Notes under the pieces: model-generated | The model's database searches: none | What the model was told of the DNA's origin: nothing | What the model saw: the letters and a program-made list of their open reading frames with translations, nothing else | Origin: an uncultured virus (IMG/VR IMGVR_UViG_3300021142_001411) | Taxonomy: Duplodnaviria; Heunggongvirae; Uroviricota; Caudoviricetes | IMG/VR virus record: IMGVR_UViG_3300021142_001411 | Strand: one strand, 5' to 3' | DNA: 64,000 nucleotides | Made by a program: the position numbers and the translations under genes | Part shown: one piece after another, positions 73-11,297 of the stretch | How positions within the stretch are numbered: the first letter of the stretch is position 1 | Layout: each line of letters begins with the position of its first letter

Positions 73-522
73 TTATGTAAAACTATTAATTATTTCTTTA
101 ACAGTATTTGCATCTGACATACCAGGAAAAGATTTATTAAATAATCCAATTGCTTTTCCAATTTTCTTATTAATATTGGATTCATCACTTAAAGAATCCA
201 ATATCTTTTTTATTTCAATTTCCATTTCTTCTTTTGTTAAAGGTTTTGGCATATATTTTTCCAAAACTAACATTTCATTTTTTTCATTTTCAGACAAATC
301 TAAACGATTACCTTTGATGAATTCATCATAAGATTGTTTTCTTTGTTTGATACAATTTGAAATTACCTTCAAAATACTTTCTTCAGTTAATTCTTGATTA
401 GAATTTAACTTTTCTGATTCAGTAATTTTTGATTTTAAACTACTCAAAGCATTTTTTGTTACTTGATCTTTTGCTTTCATTGCAACAACAAAATCATTTT
501 GTATTTGTTCTTTTAATTTCAT
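73..522 (-). CDS. GatB/YqeY domain protein
   Basis: MKLKEQIQNDFVVAMKAKD...IKQRKQSYDEF..GNRLDL..E..VLEKYMP is typical of YqeY. Confidence 0.9.
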   Translation of the reverse strand: MKLKEQIQNDFVVAMKAKDQVTKNALSSLKSKITESEKLNSNQELTEESILKVISNCIKQRKQSYDEFIKGNRLDLSENEKNEMLVLEKYMPKPLTKEEMEIEIKKILDSLSDESNINKKIGKAIGLFNKSFPGMSDANTVKEIINSFT

Positions 523-2203: not shown

Positions 2204-2971
2204 TTATTGAATATTTTTATTATATTTTTTATCCCACATTTCTATTCGTTCTAATAATTGATTGTATGTTAAAATAGATTTTTTGTTTTTAGAAACATTT
2301 TCATTATGTATCATTAATTTACAATTTGCCGGATGTGATAATAATTTAGGATTAATACCTTTATTAAAACCATCTTTAACTGATAACATATGATCCCTAC
2401 TTACACCACTTAAATTATTACCTCTATTTTTAGGTTTATACCAACCATATTTTTCAATTAACGAAAAATCAAATTCATTTGGATAATCATTCAAACTAAA
2501 TTTAAAATTGGTTTCTTGTTTATATTTGGCAAATTCAGTCATATCTTTTTGATTGTTTTGTTTTTTACAATTATCTGAACAAAATTTTTTACGTATTTTT
2601 TTTTCTATTAGAATATCACAATTTTTACATTTAATAGTTTTATTTACTAATTTATTCTTATGTGATATAGACATTCTTTTTTTTGTTTCATTTGTAACTA
2701 CTCTACCTATATTAGTAAATGAAGTGGAACATGACTGAGAACAAAATGAATTTCTTCTTTTTTCGTAACTTAAAATTTTATTACATTTTGGATTTAAACA
2801 AAATTTTAATTTTTTTTCATAAAGTTCTTTTGTTTTTTCAGTTAACCCATTGCCATTTTTACTATAATCTCTTAAATTTTTATTTACATGATAATTTCTA
2901 CATTTAAAAGAACAATAAATTCTATTGTTTTCAATTTCTTTGTTACACTCAATATTTTTACATTTATTCAT
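2204..2971 (-). CDS. Putative homing endonuclease (CxxC..CSxxC repeats, NUMOD3-like segment, HNH-like C-terminus)
   Basis: Three C-x2/4-C...CSxxC motifs; TNETKKRMSISHK; SRDHM...HPANC...EN. Confidence 0.65.
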   Translation of the reverse strand: MNKCKNIECNKEIENNRIYCSFKCRNYHVNKNLRDYSKNGNGLTEKTKELYEKKLKFCLNPKCNKILSYEKRRNSFCSQSCSTSFTNIGRVVTNETKKRMSISHKNKLVNKTIKCKNCDILIEKKIRKKFCSDNCKKQNNQKDMTEFAKYKQETNFKFSLNDYPNEFDFSLIEKYGWYKPKNRGNNLSGVSRDHMLSVKDGFNKGINPKLLSHPANCKLMIHNENVSKNKKSILTYNQLLERIEMWDKKYNKNIQ

Positions 2972-3025
2972 ATTTATAAATATTAATAAAATGGAAAAAA
3001 GTAAAGACGAATTAAAAACAATTTA

Positions 3026-3103
3026 GTGGAAGTTACGGTGAACGATACCGTCTGATTTCCGCATTGCAAGTGCGGTGACCACACCAATGCAGTCCCAACC
3101 CCC
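3026..3103 (-). tRNA. tRNA-Ala(TGC)
   Basis: GGGGGTT/AACTTCC-A with G3:U70; CCGCA CTTGCAA TGCGG; atypical T loop. Confidence 0.85.
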
Positions 3104-3183
3104 ATTTAATTCCCCATATTTCAAAGATCAGATGCTCATCCACTAGAGCTTCACCCCCATTTTTTTTAAAGAACTATATAAAC

Positions 3184-3215
3184 AAAAAAACCTCGGAAGG
3201 TTATTCCGAGGTTTT
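3184..3215 (-). terminator. Intrinsic terminator (attenuator) upstream of the tRNA array
   Basis: AAAACCTCGGAA-TAACC-TTCCGAGG followed by T7 on the minus strand. Confidence 0.85.
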
Positions 3216-3239
3216 CACTTATAATGTTAAAATTAAAAT

Positions 3240-3341
3240 TTAACTTAAATCAGTATCAACAACTCGGAACATAATAATATCACGCTCATCCGCCCATTTT
3301 GAACAGATTGTAAACGACATCGTATGTTTGAATTGTTTCAT
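3240..3341 (-). CDS. Putative 33-aa leader peptide MKQFKHTMSFTICSKWADERDIIMFRVVDTDLS
   Basis: Hand-translated; lies between a promoter and the terminator and carries TGTTCCGAG complementary to the terminator 5' arm. Confidence 0.65.
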   Translation of the reverse strand: MKQFKHTMSFTICSKWADERDIIMFRVVDTDLS

Positions 3342-3403
3342 TGAAATTCTTTTATTTTTTTTACTTTATAATACCTCAGATACTATTTTCTCCGATTGTA
3401 TTG

Positions 3404-3435
3404 CAAATATAGATATAAATATTGGAATAAACAAG
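3404..3435 (-). promoter_or_regulatory. Bacteroidota sigma-A-type promoter of leader/tRNA array
   Basis: CTTG - 20 nt - TATATTTG. Confidence 0.7.
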
Positions 3436-3563
3436 AAAAGTTCAAAGTTTTTTAAAAATATTTTTTTTTATTTTATTTTTCCATATTTTTTTAAGATGTT
3501 TATATTGTGAAATTAAAAGATTAATAATTCAATCTTTTCTGAATTTTTAATATATTTATTAAT

Positions 3564-4370
3564 ATGAAAAAAACATTTTTATATATTAAAGAAACGCCAT
3601 TAGGATTAAAATATTTAGGTAAAACAACACAAGATCCTTACACATATAAAGGTAGTGGTATATATTGGAATAATCATTTGAAAAAAAATAATTTTACAAT
3701 AAATGACATAAAAACTACGATACTACTTGAAACCACAGATCGTAATGAATTAAAAGAAATGGGATTATATTATAGTGAGTTATATAATGTTGTAGACAAT
3801 AAAAAGTGGGCAAATTTAAAACCTGAAATTGGTGATGGTGGAAGTGGTAAAATGAAAGATGAGGTTAAAGAAAAAATAAAAAAAACAATGAAAGGTAAAA
3901 AATTAATATGGTCTGAGGAAACAATTAAAAAAAGAAATGAAAAATTAAAAGGTAGAAAAATGCCACCATGTTCAGAGGAAACTAAATTAAAAATAAGTTT
4001 GGCCAATAAACTATGGGAACATAAACCATTAACTGAAGAAACAAAAAGAAAAATTTCTGAATCAAATAAAGGTAAAATAGTCTCTAATGAGACTAAAATA
4101 AAAATCTCAATTAAACGAAAAGGAAAAAAACATACAGAAGAAACAAAAAACAAACTTTCAGAAGTTAATAAAGGTAAAATTGTTAGTGAAACAACAAAAA
4201 TAAAAATGTCAAAAAATAAAAATAATGTCAAAAAAGTATTGGATGTTAAAACAAATTTTATATATGATACAATTAAGGATGCTGCCAATTCAATAAATAT
4301 GAAACACACTACATTATGTGCAATGTTAAGAGGACAAAATAAAAATAAAACAAATTTAATATATTTATAA
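3564..4370 (+). CDS. GIY-YIG homing endonuclease with NUMOD3 repeats and C-terminal NUMOD1/HTH
   Basis: FLYIKE...KYLGKT, YKGSG; repeated (S/T)EETKxKIS. Confidence 0.85.
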   Translation: MKKTFLYIKETPLGLKYLGKTTQDPYTYKGSGIYWNNHLKKNNFTINDIKTTILLETTDRNELKEMGLYYSELYNVVDNKKWANLKPEIGDGGSGKMKDEVKEKIKKTMKGKKLIWSEETIKKRNEKLKGRKMPPCSEETKLKISLANKLWEHKPLTEETKRKISESNKGKIVSNETKIKISIKRKGKKHTEETKNKLSEVNKGKIVSETTKIKMSKNKNNVKKVLDVKTNFIYDTIKDAANSINMKHTTLCAMLRGQNKNKTNLIYL

Positions 4371-4995: not shown

Positions 4996-5469
4996 TTAAT
5001 CTTTTATTGTATGTTTTATCTGTACTCTTATACAGGTTTGAGGTTTTCTACAATTTTTAAAGAAATTATTAACGAAACCAATGATATTTCCAGCACCGAT
5101 TGGATTTGCGGAATGTGTATAAACTGTTGGAAAAACAAATTTTTGGAATGGATTATCAATAAACACACCTTCTTCTGTTGGATGCGGTATTTGTAATCTA
5201 TTTTCAAAATAATAATTTATCAACCATTTTGCACAATCAAGACCGGTTTTTTCTTTAATATTATCATAATTAAGTGTATAATTCGGACCAACATTGTTAA
5301 AATATTCTTCCATTGCGGTATCACCTAAATCATGATCCAAAGAAATTATTTCAATATTATTCAAACCAATTTCTTTTATTTTTTCAACAAACTCATCATA
5401 GTTTCTTACTACAATCCAACCTTCTTCTGTGGGGGTTCTCACATCATCTAAATAAATTTTATTCATCAA
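4996..5469 (-). CDS. Cyclic-phosphate-processing receiver-domain protein
   Basis: KIYLDDVRTP...ISLDHDLG...TGLDCAKWL...HSANPIG. Confidence 0.75.
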   Translation of the reverse strand: MMNKIYLDDVRTPTEEGWIVVRNYDEFVEKIKEIGLNNIEIISLDHDLGDTAMEEYFNNVGPNYTLNYDNIKEKTGLDCAKWLINYYFENRLQIPHPTEEGVFIDNPFQKFVFPTVYTHSANPIGAGNIIGFVNNFFKNCRKPQTCIRVQIKHTIKD

Positions 5470-6559
5470 TATTATTTTTAAACGGTTTTGAATATTTTGG
5501 GTATATATAATCCCATATTATGTTATCATAATTTTGTCTATCATACATTTTAAACAAAATTGGTCTTAAATGTTTTTCTTGCATTAAAACCCATTCTGCG
5601 TATGTTTTTCTTATTGGTAATTCTCCATCATAAGATTCGTAGATATTATCAAACAATTTACCAGCATATTCTTTTATTGAATGGAAATTATATCTCAAAT
5701 CTCTAACAGTATCTTTCACCCATTTATAGAAGTCATCTGGTACTTTTTCCAATATTTCATCTAATGGTTTATCTTCTTTCAAATATTCCCATAAATCACG
5801 ATTAGAGATGTTTGTTAATATTCTATGTAATCTACAATATTCATCACCCTTTATCTTCATTCTAAAACCATTCTTAAAACGAATAACAAATCCTTCTGCA
5901 TCATTTGATATAATTAATTTTAATTTATCAAAATCATTGAATCCGTCATATTTTTTAACAATCTTAAAACCTAAATTTGTCATTAGGTTTTTGAATCTTA
6001 TACCACCATCATAATCTTCATCGTTATAAAGATTTATTTCTTCACCTGTTTTAGTTTCGATAATTCCAAGTAATATTAAATCTTCGTAATCGTAATTACA
6101 AACAATTTTATTTTCAGGATATATGATTTCAAATAGATAAGTGTGACCTTTTGGTAGTCTATTATAATCGTATTCCTTTAATAGTTCAGTACCTTTGATT
6201 GATTGTTCTGAAGTAAATGAACCACGAGTAGATAATACCCATTCGTCTTTATAATTAAATAAAATACCCAATGAACCATCCATTTTTTCAAACACTTCAA
6301 ATGATTCGTTTGGTATTATTTCTGGTGATATTTCCAAATATTCTTCATAGTTGAAGAACTTATTAAATGGACGAGCGATAATGTCACCATCTGAATTTGT
6401 TACAAGTCCACGGCATTGTCTTGTCACATCATCCCATAAACGATCATATTGGACTTTTGGTGAATAATTCCATGTAGTCAAATCCAGAACTGGATGAGTT
6501 TGTTTTAATAACAAACCATCATTGTGGTATTTTTCTAATAATTCAGTTGTAATTAACAT
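5459..6559 (-). CDS. RNA ligase, T4 Rnl1-like (probable start MLITTE)
   Basis: QCRGLV, ARPFNKFFNY, motif I EKMDGSL, STRGSF, FEII, EGFV, KIK. Confidence 0.9.
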   Translation of the reverse strand: MLITTELLEKYHNDGLLLKQTHPVLDLTTWNYSPKVQYDRLWDDVTRQCRGLVTNSDGDIIARPFNKFFNYEEYLEISPEIIPNESFEVFEKMDGSLGILFNYKDEWVLSTRGSFTSEQSIKGTELLKEYDYNRLPKGHTYLFEIIYPENKIVCNYDYEDLILLGIIETKTGEEINLYNDEDYDGGIRFKNLMTNLGFKIVKKYDGFNDFDKLKLIISNDAEGFVIRFKNGFRMKIKGDEYCRLHRILTNISNRDLWEYLKEDKPLDEILEKVPDDFYKWVKDTVRDLRYNFHSIKEYAGKLFDNIYESYDGELPIRKTYAEWVLMQEKHLRPILFKMYDRQNYDNIIWDYIYPKYSKPFKNNIDE

Positions 6560-6615
6560 TATTTTTTTATTTAAGTTTTCAAATATAGTTGTAATATTTG
6601 AAACTACCAAATAAA

Positions 6616-7038
6616 TTACAACTTTACCTCAAAACGGTTACGCATTTTTTCTATTGTTTCATCAGGTACATTGTGTTCGTTAACACCACCATGACGATTT
6701 TCTACAATTACAGAATGAACTCTATAATTATATCTTTCTGCCATTTCATAATATGTTTTCATTTCCCATTCTTGAGTGAATGTATTGGAAACAACAATTT
6801 TTGAAAGTTCATTTTTCATTTTATTTGCACATCTAACTTGACAATCGTTATGTGCTTCTTTTATTTTTGTTGCATCAAAATTATAATTACCTTTTTCATC
6901 CATGAAATAATCATCGGCAGATAAAACATCAGTTGTATCGCTAGTCATCCATTTTAATATAACATGTCCTAATGTTGTTTTCCCGCTACCTGGTATTCCT
7001 CTTAATAATATTAAGTCTCCTTTGAATTTATTTTCCAT
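6616..7038 (-). CDS. P-loop polynucleotide-kinase-like protein
   Basis: LLRGIPGSGKTT, SADDYF, VSNTF, HNVPDETIEKM. Confidence 0.85.
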   Translation of the reverse strand: MENKFKGDLILLRGIPGSGKTTLGHVILKWMTSDTTDVLSADDYFMDEKGNYNFDATKIKEAHNDCQVRCANKMKNELSKIVVSNTFTQEWEMKTYYEMAERYNYRVHSVIVENRHGGVNEHNVPDETIEKMRNRFEVKL

Positions 7039-7060
7039 GTTCTTTTATAAATAAATAGTT

Positions 7061-7096
7061 AAAAAAATTGGGGTCAAATTAATGACCCCGTTTTTT
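7061..7096. terminator. Intrinsic terminator hairpin
   Basis: GGGGTCA-AATTAA-TGACCCC flanked by A and T runs. Confidence 0.7.
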
Positions 7097-7259
7097 ACTT
7101 CTTGATGATAGTATCAGGTGTGTGAGTTGAATCACTTGTTTTAATACTATCAACCTTTACAGTTGTTGAGTCTGTTGTTCCATTTGTGGTTGACCCAGTT
7201 CCACATGCAGTCATTGCAACGGTTGCAATAAGAGCAATTACTAAAATAATTTTATTCAT
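7095..7259 (-). CDS. Small lipoprotein (54 aa), missed by the ORF track
   Basis: MNKIILVIALIATVAMTA-C-GTGSTTNGTTDSTTVKVDSIKTSDSTHTPDTIIKK; lipobox; own TTTG..TATATTTG promoter at 7264-7295. Confidence 0.8.
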   Translation of the reverse strand: MNKIILVIALIATVAMTACGTGSTTNGTTDSTTVKVDSIKTSDSTHTPDTIIKK

Positions 7260-7295
7260 AGTGCAAATATAAATAAAATATTCTATACTTCCAAA

Positions 7296-8516
7296 TTATT
7301 TTTTGGAGATGGTTAATTTGTCTGTTTTATAACGTATTGTTATTTGACCATCTTCAATAACATTACCTCTTAAAATTTCTTCACTCAAGAAGTCTTCGCA
7401 AAGGTTTTGTATGATCCTTTTGATTGGTCTTGCACCATATTCTTCTTGGGTATTTAATTCAAAAATCTTATTTGTTACACTTTCATCAAATTTAATTTTA
7501 TAACCCTTTTCTTTCAAACGATCATTTAATTTATTCAATTCGATAGAAATAATTGATTTGATTGTTTCATCATTCAATGGATTGAATAATATTAAATCAT
7601 CAATACGATTTAAGAATTCAGGTTTGAATTGTTGTTTCAATGATTTTTGAATCATTGTTTTTCTAACCTCATATCCTTGTTTTTCACTAGTGGCAGTTTT
7701 AAACCCTACACCACCACCAAAATCAGATACTTTCTTTGCCCCAACATTTGATGTCATGATAATGATGGTATTTGTGAAATTAACTTTTCTTCCAAAAGAA
7801 TCTGTCAAATGACCTTCATCTAATATCTGAAGAAGTAAATTAAACACATCAGGGTGAGCTTTCTCAATTTCATCAAATAATATAACTGAGAATGGGTTGT
7901 TTTTAACTTTTTCTGTTAATTGACCACCTTCATCATATCCAACATATCCGGGAGGAGAACCAATTAGTTTTGATACATTGTGTTTTTCCATAAATTCCGT
8001 CATATCAATCCTTATCATTTTATTTGGATCACCAAATAATATTTCCGCAATTGATTTTGCCAGATATGTGTTATGTGATAATATACCATTAGTATAATAC
8101 CTTCTATTAGAACCTTCTATTAATTCAAGGTCATACATAATTTCCTCATAACCTAAATTAGATATTTCTAACACTTCAGATTCAATCAATTTACCATCAT
8201 TATCCGATACCATCACAAATGAACCAAATTTTAAGTCTTTAACAAATACTTCGGTTAAACCAATTGGTTCAAATGTAGTTTCATCATAATCAATAAGAAA
8301 AATAATATGATTATCTGCACATTTAAGTTCTTTGCCGTCTTTTAATTTAAGATGATAAACTTCGTATGGTATTGTTTCATGAAGGGATTCTATATCAACA
8401 AACCCATCATCAGTTAAAACTTCATACTCACTAATTTTAGTTGTTTTAGTGATCTTTTTTAATGAATCAAGTTCATTTTTTACAATTAAGTTGTTTAATT
8501 TTTCTTTTTTTATCAT
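7296..8516 (-). CDS. clpC: ClpC-type ATPase, C-terminal fragment (C-intein + AAA2/D2)
   Basis: After ILSHN: TYLAKSIAE, RIDMTEF, LIGSPPGYVGY, LFDEIEKAHPDV, FKPEFLNRID, YGARPIKR. Confidence 0.9.
   Translation of the reverse strand: MIKKEKLNNLIVKNELDSLKKITKTTKISEYEVLTDDGFVDIESLHETIPYEVYHLKLKDGKELKCADNHIIFLIDYDETTFEPIGLTEVFVKDLKFGSFVMVSDNDGKLIESEVLEISNLGYEEIMYDLELIEGSNRRYYTNGILSHNTYLAKSIAEILFGDPNKMIRIDMTEFMEKHNVSKLIGSPPGYVGYDEGGQLTEKVKNNPFSVILFDEIEKAHPDVFNLLLQILDEGHLTDSFGRKVNFTNTIIIMTSNVGAKKVSDFGGGVGFKTATSEKQGYEVRKTMIQKSLKQQFKPEFLNRIDDLILFNPLNDETIKSIISIELNKLNDRLKEKGYKIKFDESVTNKIFELNTQEEYGARPIKRIIQNLCEDFLSEEILRGNVIEDGQITIRYKTDKLTISKK
8070..8516 (-). mobile_element. Split intein, C-part (149 aa) of ClpC
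   Basis: VLTDDGF, block B LKCADNH, block F MYDLE, block G YYTNGILSHN|T. Confidence 0.9.
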
Positions 8517-8542: not shown

Positions 8543-9760
8543 TTATTTTTTTAAAAATAATAAACATTTTTTTAATACTTCTTCTTTATTACCCCATCTA
8601 TATTCGGAATCCCATATAACTAAAACATCAAACCCATTTTGTTTTGCACAATTTAATTTTAATTCATCTTTATCCCACATCTCTTGTGCTGTAATGGTTT
8701 TTATAAACGGATGTGGATAATCATCAGCTTTATATTTATTTGGATTTCCATGAAACATATCACCATGAAATTCAATTATCCGTTTATTTTTAATATCGGT
8801 AAAATCATATAACCAAACACCACCTTCTTTTTTAGTTAATTTAAACTCACTATTATGTGTTGCGAAATGAACTTTATCCCTATTACTAATATCATATGTT
8901 TCTAAAATTTTATAGAACAAATCTTGAGATATTTTAGAATATCCAATAACTATATTACCATTGGTTAATAACGATTTTAACCATTTATTTTGTCTTTCAG
9001 TAAAACGTTTTTTACCTTCTTCTTCACCATACTTTGCAATGCATTTTTCAAGACTAAAAGTTGACTGATGTTCTGATACATTTTGTTTTGCATCTTCTTT
9101 TGAATAACCTTTATTAACCCAATATTCTATATTGGATGGAATTAGTCTTTTTTCAAAATCAACTTGTTTCGCAGATTCAGTTTGGTTTTTACTAATAATG
9201 TCTTTTGCCTCATTTTCAGAACACCCCTTATTAACCCAGAATTCAGAATTTGTTGGTGTTAAACAAATACGTTTTATTTCTTCTTCGGTGTAACCTTTAT
9301 CAGCTAACATTTTTTTAGATTTACCATGATAAGTTTTAACACATTTAGATGATTTTTGTTGCTGTTTAGATATTTCTTTATTAGCTTCTTCTATAGAATA
9401 ACCCTTATTTATCCAATATTCCTTACATAAACGATTCCTTTGTTTTAATTCTTCATTACGTTTATCCAATTCAACCAAAGCGTCTTTATCATTCCAACCA
9501 CGTTCAATCCAATATCCTAATTCTCCCCATTTTTTAGTTTTAAAACCATAATTTTTAACCAACCAACCACGCATTAACGATAACGAAACAACACCTTCTT
9601 GTTCTTGTAATTTAATTATTAATGATTCCATTTCTTTTTTAATCGTTTCATTATCGTAGCGTATGTTTTTATCTAATTTTAAAACATGGTCTTTAAACGT
9701 TTCTAAATCTGGAAACACTTCAGTCACTTCTTTAATTCCTTTACTTGTTTTTATCTTCAT
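8543..9760 (-). CDS. Vsr-like endonuclease between ClpC split-intein halves
   Basis: YDF..IIEFHGDMFHGNP...MWDKD...GFDVLVIWDSE; N-terminal YW(I/V)NKGYSxEEA repeats. Confidence 0.8.
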   Translation of the reverse strand: MKIKTSKGIKEVTEVFPDLETFKDHVLKLDKNIRYDNETIKKEMESLIIKLQEQEGVVSLSLMRGWLVKNYGFKTKKWGELGYWIERGWNDKDALVELDKRNEELKQRNRLCKEYWINKGYSIEEANKEISKQQQKSSKCVKTYHGKSKKMLADKGYTEEEIKRICLTPTNSEFWVNKGCSENEAKDIISKNQTESAKQVDFEKRLIPSNIEYWVNKGYSKEDAKQNVSEHQSTFSLEKCIAKYGEEEGKKRFTERQNKWLKSLLTNGNIVIGYSKISQDLFYKILETYDISNRDKVHFATHNSEFKLTKKEGGVWLYDFTDIKNKRIIEFHGDMFHGNPNKYKADDYPHPFIKTITAQEMWDKDELKLNCAKQNGFDVLVIWDSEYRWGNKEEVLKKCLLFLKK

Positions 9761-9806: not shown

Positions 9807-11144
9807 CTAATTGGTGTCGGGTACTATATTTTTTATATCAATCGTTTTTATCTCACCAGTTACTTTGTTTCTAACAGTTATTTTTGTATCACCACAAATA
9901 CACTTACCAACACCAGTAGAACCTAAGAACATAAATGAACCGATTGGTTTATTTGTATCTTTAATTCCCACTCTATTTCTTCTGATAGATTTTGCAATTA
10001 TTGAAATTGCTTCTTCTTGACCGATAACTTTCTTATTAAGAATTTCTTCCATCTTTAAAAGTTTTTCAGTTTCCTTATTGTCAAGTTTTGCAATCGGAAC
10101 ACCGGTCATTTCTGTTATGATATGATAAACATCATCAACTGAAATTACTTTTTTATTTAATTTACATTCTTCCTCAAATTTGGCTTTGATTTCAATTATT
10201 TTATTTGCCAATTTCTTTCCTTCATCTCTCAATCTTGCTGCATCTTCAAAATTCTGACTTCTTACAACCAATTTCTTTTGCTCATTGATTTTTTCAATTT
10301 CAGCATTAATTTTATCAACTTCTTCTGGTAGTTTTGTTGAGATCTTCTTTTCAGAACCCAATTCATCCATGATATCAATTGATTTATCAGGGAATTGTCT
10401 ATCTGTAATAAATCTACCAGACAATTTAACAATGGTTTCTATAACATTATCATTATATGATACCATATGGAAATTCTCATAAGAAGTTTTTAAGTTCTTT
10501 AAGATTTCTATTGTTTCCAATTCTGTTGGTTCATTAAGAATAATCTTTTGGAATCTTCTTACCAAAGCAGAATCTTTTTCGATATGTTTTTTATATTCAT
10601 CGAAAGTCGTTGCTCCGATGCATTGTATTTCACCACGTGCCAAAGCGGGTTTAAGGATATTTGCTGCATCCATTGCACCACTTGCATTACCAGCACCTAC
10701 CATTGTATGTAATTCATCAATGAATACAATAACGTTGGTAACACCTTCCAATTCATTTAAGATTGCTTTAATACGTTCTTCAAATTGTCCTCTGTATTTT
10801 GTACCAGCAACTAATGAGGTTAAATCCAAGGACATGATTCTTTTATCTAATAGATTAGAAGGACAATCACCTTTATATATCATTAGTGCAAGTTTTTCAA
10901 CTAATGCAGATTTACCAACACCCGCATCACCAACAATAACTGCATTGTTCTTCTTCTTACGAGATAGAATTTGTGCAATACGTTTAACTTCTAAATCTCT
11001 ACCTATAATAGGGTCAATCTTTCCTTCCTCTGCCAACTTAACAAGGTCTCTGGAAAAATTATCCAAAATAGGTGTGTTTGAACCCTTCTTAGTTTTTTTA
11101 GGGTTAGTGGGTTGTTGACCCTCTTCGTAATAATCTACTGACAT
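9807..11144 (-). CDS. clpC: ClpC-type ATPase, N-terminal fragment (AAA1, UVR-like linker, start of AAA2, N-intein)
   Basis: LDNFSRDL, GDAGVGKS, AGTKYRGQFEER, FIDELH, LKPALARG, FLGSTGVGK|C; likely start MSVDYY. Confidence 0.92.
   Translation of the reverse strand: MSVDYYEEGQQPTNPKKTKKGSNTPILDNFSRDLVKLAEEGKIDPIIGRDLEVKRIAQILSRKKKNNAVIVGDAGVGKSALVEKLALMIYKGDCPSNLLDKRIMSLDLTSLVAGTKYRGQFEERIKAILNELEGVTNVIVFIDELHTMVGAGNASGAMDAANILKPALARGEIQCIGATTFDEYKKHIEKDSALVRRFQKIILNEPTELETIEILKNLKTSYENFHMVSYNDNVIETIVKLSGRFITDRQFPDKSIDIMDELGSEKKISTKLPEEVDKINAEIEKINEQKKLVVRSQNFEDAARLRDEGKKLANKIIEIKAKFEEECKLNKKVISVDDVYHIITEMTGVPIAKLDNKETEKLLKMEEILNKKVIGQEEAISIIAKSIRRNRVGIKDTNKPIGSFMFLGSTGVGKCICGDTKITVRNKVTGEIKTIDIKNIVPDTN
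9810..9902 (-). mobile_element. Split intein, short N-part (31 aa) of ClpC
   Basis: CICGDTKITVRNKVTGEIKTIDIKNIVPDTN directly follows the Walker A lysine. Confidence 0.88.
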
Positions 11145-11297
11145 AATTAAAATTTTATTTGTGCAAACATAACCCAAAAAATAATCCAAACAAAATATTT
11201 TTTTATTTTTGTCAAATTGTCAAACATATATGTCAAAAAGTCCATTTTTTTTATTTGGTATTTAAATTGATAATTTATGAGAAAAAATTAATAAATT

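Follow-up and report, generated by a model that had tools for sequence, protein, structure and literature searches.

The attenuators of the trp, his, thr, ilvGMEDA, pheA and leu operons in Proteobacteria combine a short leader ORF with an antiterminator and a terminator that share a strand, and their regulatory codons fit the output of the operon. Sensing in such leaders can be multivalent, as in the thr leader, which responds to Thr and Ile, and the ilv leader, which responds to Ile, Val and Leu. T-box elements operate free of translation: their specifier loop and T-box bulge contact the uncharged tRNA directly. Phage tRNA genes, for their part, are usually seen either as constitutive aids to codon usage or as decoys for defences that cut tRNAs and, to our knowledge, hardly anything has been described about the control of their expression. 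At the vmlR, msrD, bmrCD and lmrC leaders, a stalled ribosome is reported to favour an antiterminator and so to turn on a gene that remedies the problem in translation. Two further papers describe phage tRNAs that replace host tRNAs depleted by defence nucleases, including retron effectors, PARIS and anticodon nucleases (PMC11555353, PMC11464382). We found no report of an attenuator ahead of phage tRNA genes in the literature that we searched.

Here, we analysed a stretch of 64,000 nt of DNA from an uncultured Caudoviricetes virus (IMG/VR IMGVR_UViG_3300021142_001411), referred to as the window, and show that a layout of ORF, antiterminator and terminator upstream of phage tRNA genes is real, conserved and beyond chance. 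The parts of this layout, their conservation, the covariation of both alternative helices and a match between leader codons and downstream tRNAs were all observed directly. We consider it likely that the locus is a ribosome-mediated (leader-peptide) transcription attenuator heading phage tRNA genes, one that is multivalent and would be on when the cognate tRNAs become limiting.

All features lie on the minus strand, and their coordinates are given in the direction of transcription. As a sequence-only reading of this DNA had proposed, the leader is preceded by a host-type promoter (3435-3404), in which a −33 element CTTG with a TTG core (3435-3432, read directly) is spaced by 20 nt from a predicted −7 box TATATTTG (3411-3404) of the TAnnTTTG type, the Bacteroidota −7 promoter consensus. 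TATATTTGCA occurs in ten copies in the 162-kb record, every one on the strand of the promoter. The leader ORF (3341-3240) comprises 33 codons plus a stop and encodes the product MKQFKHTMSFTICSKWADERDIIMFRVVDTDLS. Its first 20 codons cover 14 amino-acid types, Met, Ser, His, Cys, Arg, Trp, Phe and Ala included, and the codons ACG, TCG, GCG and CGA are indeed rare in this genome, with shares of 5%, 3%, 10% and 3% in their synonymous sets (CGT, 15%); both points had been made in the sequence-only reading, as had the presence of the ORF itself. Codons 2-20 (3338-3282) form the proposed stall zone, a role suggested by geometry and by the codon-to-tRNA match. The antiterminator 5′ strand TGTTCCGAG (3271-3263) occupies codons 24-27 and is complementary to CTCGGAATA (3210-3202), in the terminator 5′ arm; the 9 bp of pairing announced earlier are present, one of them a G-U, with a duplex energy of −13.1 kcal/mol. 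Between the two strands, folding predicts a hairpin (3247-3222) that contains the stop codon TAA (3242-3240) and would form the apex of the antiterminator structure. The intrinsic terminator (3216-3184) consists of a 5′ arm (3216-3204), a 5-nt loop (3203-3199), a 3′ arm (3198-3186) and a T-run reaching 3184, with 13 pairs in the stem (3216-3186). A strong terminator therefore does follow the ORF as claimed, but not at the claimed distance of 25 nt: the gap from stop codon to stem is 23 nt (3239-3217), or 24 if counted to the 12-nt arm. Within 6 kb there are nine terminator-like sites, against 1.8 expected from shuffles.

Of 79 sequences that we examined from phage and metagenome contigs, 70 belong to the family (56 distinct, 55 complete) and the other nine match by chance. 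The ORF, the terminator and the ORF-internal antiterminator segment (codons 24-27) are kept in all 55 complete homologues, although such counts exaggerate the number of independent events because the homologues are mutually related. A conserved short ORF with a covarying antiterminator and terminator before the tRNA arrays of relatives, which the sequence-only reading had suggested looking for, is thus present, and the layout recurs in 55/55. The homologous ORFs have 31-34 codons and their terminators range from −10.0 to −17.7 kcal/mol (55/55). Start context, reading frame and stop-in-hairpin geometry are likewise preserved in every case: the leader frame is open in 55/55, and both alternative frames contain stops in 55/55. 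The stop codon lies 13-21 nt 3′ of the antiterminator strand and 18-28 nt 5′ of the terminator, and it is paired within the hairpin in 50/55 homologues. A TAnnTTTG box stands 5′ of the leader in 52/55, and a TTG is found 19-21 nt 5′ of the box in 49/55. Gap lengths in the MAFFT alignment of 46 sequences are unclean as a coding test.

Database searches returned little beyond this family. With the leader peptide, phmmer gave nine matches, five of them short homologous proteins and the other four longer (117-1048 aa), each matching over more than one segment; the peptide matched nothing in PHROGs or Pfam, and its five homologues matched no relevant Pfam family (E up to 10). Megablast with 8 kb against deposited phages gave no match, a more distant search gave matches to the tRNA-Ala and HNH pieces alone, and a scan of genome contigs gave five matches and no family members. 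One contig (L003) is 100% identical to positions 5000-2042 of the window and is hence uninformative. The 14-mer TCTTTGAAATATGG was rejected as a family probe, being unspecific (at least 119 chance loci). We also discarded the idea that the ORF-terminator cassette had been inserted between flanking ATCTGA sequences: judged by relatives, the cassette is ancestral, and the window instead has a deletion in its first tRNA-Ala.

Both alternative helices show compensatory change. Across the 46 sequences aligned with MAFFT, 94.0% of the 364 cells in the antiterminator columns are paired, compared with 13.0-47.3% when the partner is slid, and four pairs have both sides changed, in 35 cells. The observed paired share, the doubly changed cells and the covariation score were each reached in 0/500 shuffles. 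In the same comparison the terminator is 99.8% paired, with two pairs changed on both sides. Some antiterminator pairs extend into the terminator loop, which is unconstrained by the terminator itself. The mean energy of the cognate antiterminator duplex is −12.0 kcal/mol, compared with −6.2 (sd 2.4) for shuffled tails, with 19/55 sequences in which the cognate energy was reached by 6-31 of 200 shuffles; folding of the nascent RNA gives the antiterminator in 55/55. The stop-codon hairpin taken in isolation has a mean z of −1.35, not clearly above shuffles. Among the aligned homologues we found no conserved helix that would sequester the antiterminator strand in an untranslated leader. In the minimum-energy fold of the window, codons 2-4 pair with this strand, a pairing that by eye is unconserved in alignments of relatives, and the start region AUGAGAC was rejected as a partner since codon 2 varies (AGA, AAA, ACA) with no compensation.

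An equivalent layout, built around unrelated leader peptides, also stands before tRNA arrays in three other settings, which we call family 2, L029 and leader B. Family 2 comprises eight distinct sequences with one compensatory change and has a promoter resembling the sigma-70 type, and leader B lies between the array halves in 9/10 genomes. We compared leader codons with tRNAs in nine related genomes under strict wobble rules, taking codons 2-20 of leader A, the type found in the window. Leader A is cognate to sub-array 1 at 140/171 codons (82%) and to sub-array 2 at 38/171 (22%), whereas leader B is cognate to sub-array 2 at 162/220 (74%) and to sub-array 1 at 10/220 (5%); the phage-codon background is 44.7% for the sub-array 1 set and 43.6% for the sub-array 2 set. 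Fisher's test in one genome gives p = 4e-5. The split holds at the isoacceptor level (Arg CGY versus AGA, Ser TCR versus AGT, Ile ATY versus ATA), and Cys, His and Trp are exclusive to leader A, Pro, Asn, Tyr and Gly to leader B. The codons of each leader mirror the tRNAs of its own sub-array down to the isoacceptor. The earlier proposal that the leader senses many tRNAs gains independent support in that its codons match downstream tRNAs, but the general tRNA pool that it invoked gives way to the leader's own sub-array. In L029, 30/30 leader codons are matched (extended wobble), and in family 2 the match is weakly above background (P = 0.014-0.12; 22/32 codons in L023). The window is itself a weak example of the mirror: its array is rearranged, its first tRNA-Ala is truncated, a second promoter-like site is present, and by reading 12/19 leader codons have a partner tRNA in the first sub-array. 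Leader B was not found in the window's 162-kb record.

The conserved peptide raises the possibility that the same switch is worked by a nascent arrest peptide that stops the ribosome, maybe with a small-molecule cofactor as in TnaC or SecM, and with no sensing of tRNA supply. The block SF[T/I]ICSKWADER varies little or not at all, also in the five short phmmer homologues found without pattern constraint, although the invariance of CSKWADER in the scanned set says little because the search pattern contained it. Its conservation could stem from a role of the peptide as such; three of the four leader types contain Trp, and the peptide has what we take, as a lead only, to be a resemblance to the 'SKW' region of TnaC. 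However, four unrelated leader peptides share one RNA layout, leader B has no Trp, and codon content follows the tRNAs of each leader's own array, which an arrest motif does not predict. Pfam gave no matches (E up to 10), the tryptophanase leader family included. We regard an arrest peptide as very improbable and favour a switch governed by the supply of cognate tRNAs.

A further hairpin within the ORF, H1 (3308-3288; 9 bp, codons 12-18, ATCTGTTCA-AAA-TGGGCGGAT), was identified with RNAalifold and is conserved; its pairing-preserving changes are one-sided only, and its support is weak because most of its columns were set by the search pattern. It is possible that H1 acts as a pause hairpin for RNA polymerase. 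That a phage or host protein or RNA factor binds around H1 and controls whether antiterminator or terminator prevails, translation being irrelevant, is in our view very improbable, even though RNA-binding antiterminator proteins and tRNA-binding leaders offer models for it, phages with only 57% identity between their RNA ligases share about 36 unchanged nt around H1, and substitutions in H1 preserve pairing. H1 lies ~25 nt from the antiterminator strand with no overlap, the remaining leader types differ in sequence at its position, and the conservation of frame, start context and stop-in-hairpin geometry in 55/55 homologues also speaks against a switch independent of translation. Nor do searches for known regulatory RNAs point to such a factor: T-box gave 0 matches within 2980-3460 (E up to 10), His_leader (22.0 bits, threshold 49) and Phe_leader (21.9 bits, threshold 55) both align on the terminator hairpin, and the other Rfam matches to the leader region (MicC etc.) are sub-threshold and terminator-based.

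Behind the terminator of the window follow, in order, a tRNA-Ala fragment, an atypical tRNA-Ala(UGC), an HNH gene, a second promoter-like site, tRNA-Phe and the remaining array. A leader motif of the GTTCTTT[GA]A type occurs three times, first as GTTCTTTAAAA (3174-3164); it presumably resembles boxA, a likeness that we treat as a candidate. The fragment is the 5′ half of a truncated tRNA-Ala gene (3158-3128) that is intact in relatives L197 and L243. A spacer motif GATCTTTGAAATATGG lies at 3129-3114, and its 14-mer is repeated at 2140-2127. The atypical tRNA-Ala(UGC) (3103-3027) has G3:U70, GG at positions 8-9 and an unusual T-loop. It was identified by BLAST, with 86% identity to phage tRNA-Ala genes, was uncalled by ARAGORN and Rfam, and by reading shows compensatory changes relative to the copy in L171. 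The inserted gene (2971-2204) encodes an HNH-type homing endonuclease (phrog_23051, phrog_1271). The genes for tRNA-Phe(GAA), Trp(CCA), Arg(ACG), Cys(GCA), His(GUG), Ser(UGA) and Met(CAU) occupy 2118-844. The tRNAs are thus downstream of the terminator, as the sequence-only reading had it, but the HNH gene and the second promoter-like site intervene. Genes for a Pnk-like kinase and an Rnl1-like RNA ligase, which are tRNA-repair genes, lie upstream and adjoin the array; a tRNA array beside the RNA ligase is absent in the closer ligase relatives L005-L015.

The second promoter-like site (2195-2166; TTG, 19 nt, TATCTTTG; repeat family D19) stands ahead of tRNA-Phe and would bypass the attenuator, so that control over the whole array of the window is at most partial. 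The element is also found behind tRNA-Ala in L204 and L243, and a TTG-N19-TAnnTTTG site follows the leader B terminator in most relatives. Given these sites, attenuation may add to a basal level of expression and not gate it outright. In most relatives the first tRNA begins ~5-10 nt past the T-run, which leaves no room for a separate promoter. This first tRNA is tRNA-Ala(UGC) in 48 of the 53 informative relatives and tRNA-Trp in five; tRNA-Ala as a specific target was rejected, since five arrays begin with tRNA-Trp and family 2 with tRNA-Phe. Least probable of all, and also very improbable in our view, is that the ORF is simply a small phage gene of the usual kind, equipped with a separate promoter and terminator, the tRNAs arising from leaky readthrough or other promoters and the upstream complement of the terminator arm being non-regulatory: the conserved peptide, the calling of similar products as proteins in public data and the promoter-like sites before tRNA-Phe and past the leader B terminator would fit, but the terminator arm, and even the loop, covaries with a segment inside the ORF, the first tRNA of most relatives lies within ~10 nt of the T-run with no promoter of its own, and the codon-to-tRNA mirror is left unexplained.

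Returning to ribosome-mediated attenuation, we infer that the leader is translated, for which the frame kept open in 55/55 homologues is indirect evidence, and that stalling is what decides, and likewise the direction of the switch and its biological trigger. Host RNA polymerase would initiate at the TAnnTTTG promoter and transcribe the 33-codon leader, in which the RNA of codons 24-27 could pair with the terminator 5′ arm, the stop-codon hairpin sitting at the tip of the antiterminator. A fast ribosome would unwind the antiterminator strand and come to rest on the stop codon, so that the terminator forms and transcription stops. A ribosome held within codons 2-20 would leave the strand free, the antiterminator would form first, and transcription would enter the tRNA genes. 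Because the leader codons match the downstream tRNA species, the switch would report a shortage of those tRNAs, and newly made cognate tRNAs would relieve the stall and close a feedback loop. Two metatranscriptome runs contain 5-6% of the sequence words, and one 151-nt contig from them, at depth 2, covers 3440-3291; it also spans DNA 5′ of the promoter and is uninformative on transcript ends and on habitat.

A broader hypothesis, which we find about as plausible as its contrary, is that tRNA arrays of large phages are under codon-mirrored multivalent attenuation, with at least four leader types in many uncultivated phages, each sub-array being preceded by a leader ORF that lists its tRNAs at roughly one codon per species. 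Depletion of any one species, whether through host shut-off, codon mismatch or anticodon-loop nucleases, would turn on the sub-array, and the new tRNAs would turn it off. The phage would thereby adjust its own tRNA supply and have an inducible answer to defences that target tRNAs. A role against tRNA-destroying defences is a candidate suggested by gene context, namely the Pnk-like kinase and the Rnl1-like ligase, and would tie the sensing of tRNA supply to phage survival of tRNA-targeting immunity. The signature of short ORF, antiterminator, terminator and tRNA could be used to find regulated tRNA arrays in metagenomes.

The phage locus shares with amino-acid operon attenuators the leader ORF, the shared-strand helices, the match between codons and product, and multivalence. 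It differs from them in controlling tRNAs where they control biosynthetic enzymes, in its unrepeated codons, which cover ~12-16 tRNA species once or twice each, and in its carriers, phages with Bacteroidota-type promoters and without Shine-Dalgarno sequences. Also unlike those attenuators, it yielded no conserved 1:2 anti-antiterminator helix, so that readthrough may be the default state of a leader that is not being translated. As with the vmlR, msrD, bmrCD and lmrC leaders, a stall on the leader ORF would favour the antiterminator; those leaders are reported to answer antibiotics that act on the ribosome, in specific peptide or codon contexts, whereas the codons of the phage leader match downstream tRNAs and its output is tRNA. 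With T-boxes it would have in common that a specific tRNA state decides between antiterminator and terminator, but the phage leader has a conserved ORF and would read many tRNAs together. Like the phage tRNAs implicated in counter-defence, the locus consists of phage tRNA genes, here with tRNA-repair genes adjoining the array; the reports on those systems cover tRNA function and not the regulation of tRNA synthesis (PMC11555353, PMC11464382). If our reading is true, this locus would provide the first attenuation-based feedback control described for tRNA genes and the most multivalent attenuator known.

The window's record is a viral contig of 162 kb, with a G+C content of 27.6% and an estimated completeness of about half. 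On its minus strand, leader A comprises a promoter (CTTG at 3435-3432, 20 nt, then TATATTTG at 3411-3404, as read from the sequence of 3700-2000), an A-rich untranslated stretch, a 33-codon ORF with an ATG start (3341-3240) and, after a spacer of 23 nt, a terminator consisting of a 13-pair hairpin and a T-run (3216-3184). Within the ORF, TGTTCCGAG (3271-3263, codons 24-27) is complementary to CTCGGAATA (3210-3202), a portion of the terminator 5' arm, with a pairing energy of -13.1 kcal/mol. The sequence-only reading had proposed this promoter, ORF, terminator and pairing, all of which we recover, but its placement of the tRNAs straight after the terminator does not hold in the window. There, a GTTCTTTAAAA motif (3174-3164) lies just behind the terminator, followed by the 5' half alone of a tRNA-Ala gene (3158-3128), a spacer motif (3129-3114), an unusual tRNA-Ala(UGC) called by neither ARAGORN nor Rfam (3103-3027), a gene for an HNH endonuclease (2971-2204) and another promoter-like site at 2195-2166 (TTG-N19-TATCTTTG), behind which stand tRNA-Phe, Trp, Arg(ACG), Cys, His, Ser(UGA) and Met in that order, all on the minus strand. 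The sequence TATATTTGCA occurs ten times in the 162-kb record, always on the strand of the leader; we take a TAnnTTTG box to be a mark of Bacteroidota promoters.

Several features of this tRNA region are worth recording. The first tRNA-Ala ends inside its anticodon stem and is fused to a spacer that is found further downstream in loci L204 and L243, while the second, atypical copy has a G3:U70 pair, an odd T-loop and stem changes that are compensated relative to the copy in L171. The region also holds a gene for a YqeY/GatB-like protein (73-522, minus strand), with a TATATTTGCA promoter copy ahead of it at ~557. Outside the window, at the distal end of the tRNA region, the same genome encodes a tRNA whose anticodon, CUA, would decode amber stops (G000:C1:35257-35328); one relative, L277, has such a tRNA too. 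This could point to recoding or suppression of stop codons.

Searches of deposited phages returned no close relative. Among the records of RNA-ligase relatives, BLAST identified one (G003) whose ligase is 57% and whose leader ORF region is 79% identical to the window's, with a TATCTTTG promoter, a 32-codon ORF, a terminator with a different stem and then, directly, tRNA-Ala and the array. A 21-mer and then a degenerate CSKWADER pattern were used for scanning and matched 12 and 19 viral loci, plus 64 loci in metagenomes; inspection of 79 sequences left 70 family members (56 distinct, 55 complete) and nine chance matches in unrelated coding DNA. In bacterial and archaeal contigs, sampled at one genome per species, the CSKWADER pattern had five matches, none of them a family member. 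When 1.84 billion representative proteins were searched with phmmer, which is pattern-free, five short ones were retrieved, all containing CSKWADER.

The architecture of leader A is conserved across the 55 complete homologues. All have the terminator (-10.0 to -17.7 kcal/mol) and an open ORF frame with stops in both other frames; 52 have the TAnnTTTG box and 49 a TTG at -33. The peptide measures 31-34 residues, the antiterminator strand (the ORF segment pairing with the terminator arm) occupies codons 24/25-27, this strand stops 13-21 nt ahead of the stop codon in all but one homologue (24 nt in L204), and 18-28 nt separate the stop codon from the terminator arm. As the first gene behind the T-run, 48 homologues carry tRNA-Ala(UGC) and five carry tRNA-Trp, two contigs being too short to judge; since the tRNA starts within ~10 nt of the T-run in most homologues, there is no space for a promoter. 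The distant relative L020 (~7000-7340) represents a natural deletion variant, in which a promoter, spacer and terminator precede a partly decayed array with neither leader ORF nor antiterminator strand.

Comparative folding supports two alternative helices. Applied to all 55 sequences, RNAalifold recovered the terminator, with four two-sided pair changes, together with a hairpin of 9 bp within codons 12-18 (H1; 3308-3288 in the window). Because the register of the antiterminator helix differs between two groups, this helix was tested on the larger one, 46 sequences aligned with MAFFT without fitting to structure. Paired cells made up 94.0% of 364 (13.0-47.3% in slid controls), and four of nine pairs showed two-sided changes, in 35 cells, although such counts overstate independent events because the homologues are mutually related. 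None of 500 shuffles reached the observed paired share, doubly changed cells or covariation score. The terminator was 99.8% paired in the same alignment, with two-sided change in two pairs. Some antiterminator pairs extend into the start of the terminator loop, whose bases are free of any constraint from the terminator hairpin. Two neighbouring pairs, both compensated, distinguish the window type (GTTCCGAG with CTCGGAAY) from the L186 type (GTCTCGAG with CTCGAGAC) in the smaller group. Despite the relatedness of the sequences, a peptide subgroup does not go with a single terminator type, as L176 versus L214 illustrates. The antiterminator duplex averages -12.0 kcal/mol, versus -6.2 (sd 2.4) with shuffled tails, and in 19 of the 55 sequences 6-31 of 200 shuffles reach the cognate energy. 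Nascent RNA folded up to the 5' arm forms the antiterminator in every sequence, with the stop codon paired at the apex in 50 of 55, and the window's full-length minimum-energy fold keeps it.

In the arrays, examined up to 20 kb behind leader A in nine records of its family, tRNA order is conserved as two halves separated by a gap. The first (sub-array 1) reads Ala(UGC), Ile(GAU), Phe, Lys, Trp, Arg(ACG), Cys, His, Met, Met, Asp, Ser(UGA), Glu, and the second (sub-array 2) Leu(UAA), Arg(UCU), Pro, Asn, Leu(UAG), Tyr, Met, Val, Gly, Thr, Gly, Gln, Ser(GCU). The gap contains a second leader with an unrelated peptide, leader B, complete with promoter, ORF, antiterminator and terminator (for example MKNINNILTLTSRPVNNGNGYGVQPLYYLCSDINKG), in nine of 10 genomes; the sole exception is the window's own record, where we looked for it and did not find it. 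A further scan yielded 14 leader B loci with nine distinct sequences, in which the uppermost stem pair and the ORF strand covary (TGTTCGG with GAACA, AGTTCGG with GAACT). In L276, L277, L279, L282 and L284, the T-run of the leader B terminator provides the TTG of a TTG-N19-TAnnTTTG promoter-like site, well spaced and just ahead of tRNA-Leu(UAA); terminator and promoter appear to share sequence. Ahead of tRNA-Leu(UAA), at a distance of 14-18 nt, and ahead of some other tRNAs stands a GTTCTTTGA(C/A)AT-type motif (window 3164-3174, 3114-3129 and 2127-2142; loci L276-L284) that may be akin to boxA, the antitermination element of rrn operons. The motif is strand-biased, with 32 forward and 4 reverse copies in ten array regions.

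The codons of each leader mirror the tRNAs behind it. Under strict wobble rules, from codon 2 to four codons before the pairing strand in nine genomes, leader A codons are cognate to sub-array 1 in 140/171 cases (82%) and to sub-array 2 in 38/171 (22%); for leader B, the values are 10/220 (5%) and 162/220 (74%). The codons of this phage overall match the two sets at ~44.7% and 43.6%, respectively. The match extends to isoacceptors: CGY in leader A corresponds to Arg(ACG) and AGA in leader B to Arg(UCU), TCR corresponds to Ser(UGA) and AGT to Ser(GCU), and ATY corresponds to Ile(GAU), while leader B uses ATA, and here a tRNA with a CAU anticodon may represent Ile2. Restricted to one genome, Fisher's test yields p = 4e-5, and the probability of one or fewer of 25 leader B codons matching sub-array 1 is 8e-6. 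In a cross table, the best match of every leader is its own array. The window's own genome has a partner tRNA for only 12 of 19 leader codons; its first sub-array is broken up by homing endonuclease genes and lacks Lys, Ile, Asp and Glu tRNAs.

More distant phages, with ligases ~40% identical, carry different leaders ahead of their arrays. Family 2 (eight distinct sequences) has a GTG start, a TGnTATAAT-like promoter and tRNA-Phe first, and locus L029 encodes a third leader peptide. In both, a strand inside the ORF is complementary to the terminator arm, the stop codon lies in a hairpin and a terminator is present. The terminator, at about -12, is weaker than the antiterminator duplex, at -13.6 to -19.0; L269 shows one compensated change. 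Their codon match ranges from P = 0.004 (L029, 30/30, extended wobble) to 0.12 (L023, 22/32), a weak test because their arrays decode most codons.

Upstream on the same strand lie genes for a ClpB-like ATPase, a polynucleotide-kinase-type P-loop kinase (6616-7038), a T4 Rnl1-like RNA ligase (5459-6610) and a cREC_REC 'cyclic-phosphate processing' protein (4996-5469), the last three forming a tRNA-repair-like module (4996-7038) directly upstream of the tRNA region. The ClpB-like ATPase occupies two ORFs (9807-11189 and 7296-8516, minus strand), the second opening with intein/Hint-like matches, with an unrelated ORF (8543-9760) between them; the gene may have been split by an intein or endonuclease. 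An opposite-strand homing-endonuclease gene separates these genes from leader A, which is flanked by two such genes, one containing NUMOD3 (3564-4370, plus strand) and one of HNH type (2204-2971, minus strand). The nearest relative contig has a 93% identical ligase yet is 100% identical over 2,959 nt in the leader region, which suggests that sequence near the endonuclease genes was exchanged recently.

We propose that leader A senses translation. If a ribosome were held within codons 2-20, the antiterminator strand, which begins 10-12 nt past codon 20, would stay uncovered; the antiterminator would then form and the polymerase would read on. A ribosome reaching the stop codon would have to open the strand and would then occupy the spacer, allowing the terminator to form. 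We infer that the leader ORF is translated, that ribosome and polymerase are coupled, perhaps by a pause at H1, and that an untranslated leader defaults to readthrough. The promoter-like sites behind the leader B terminator and at 2195-2166 suggest that attenuation would add to a basal level of expression. Given the match between leader codons and the tRNAs under control, the simplest reading is that tRNA supply is regulated by feedback; the neighbouring repair genes, together with published phage-tRNA work, hint at a possible role against tRNA-cutting defences. A literature search, with subscription journals outside its coverage, found no report of an attenuator ahead of phage tRNA genes. The features of leader A fit those of a leader-peptide attenuator.
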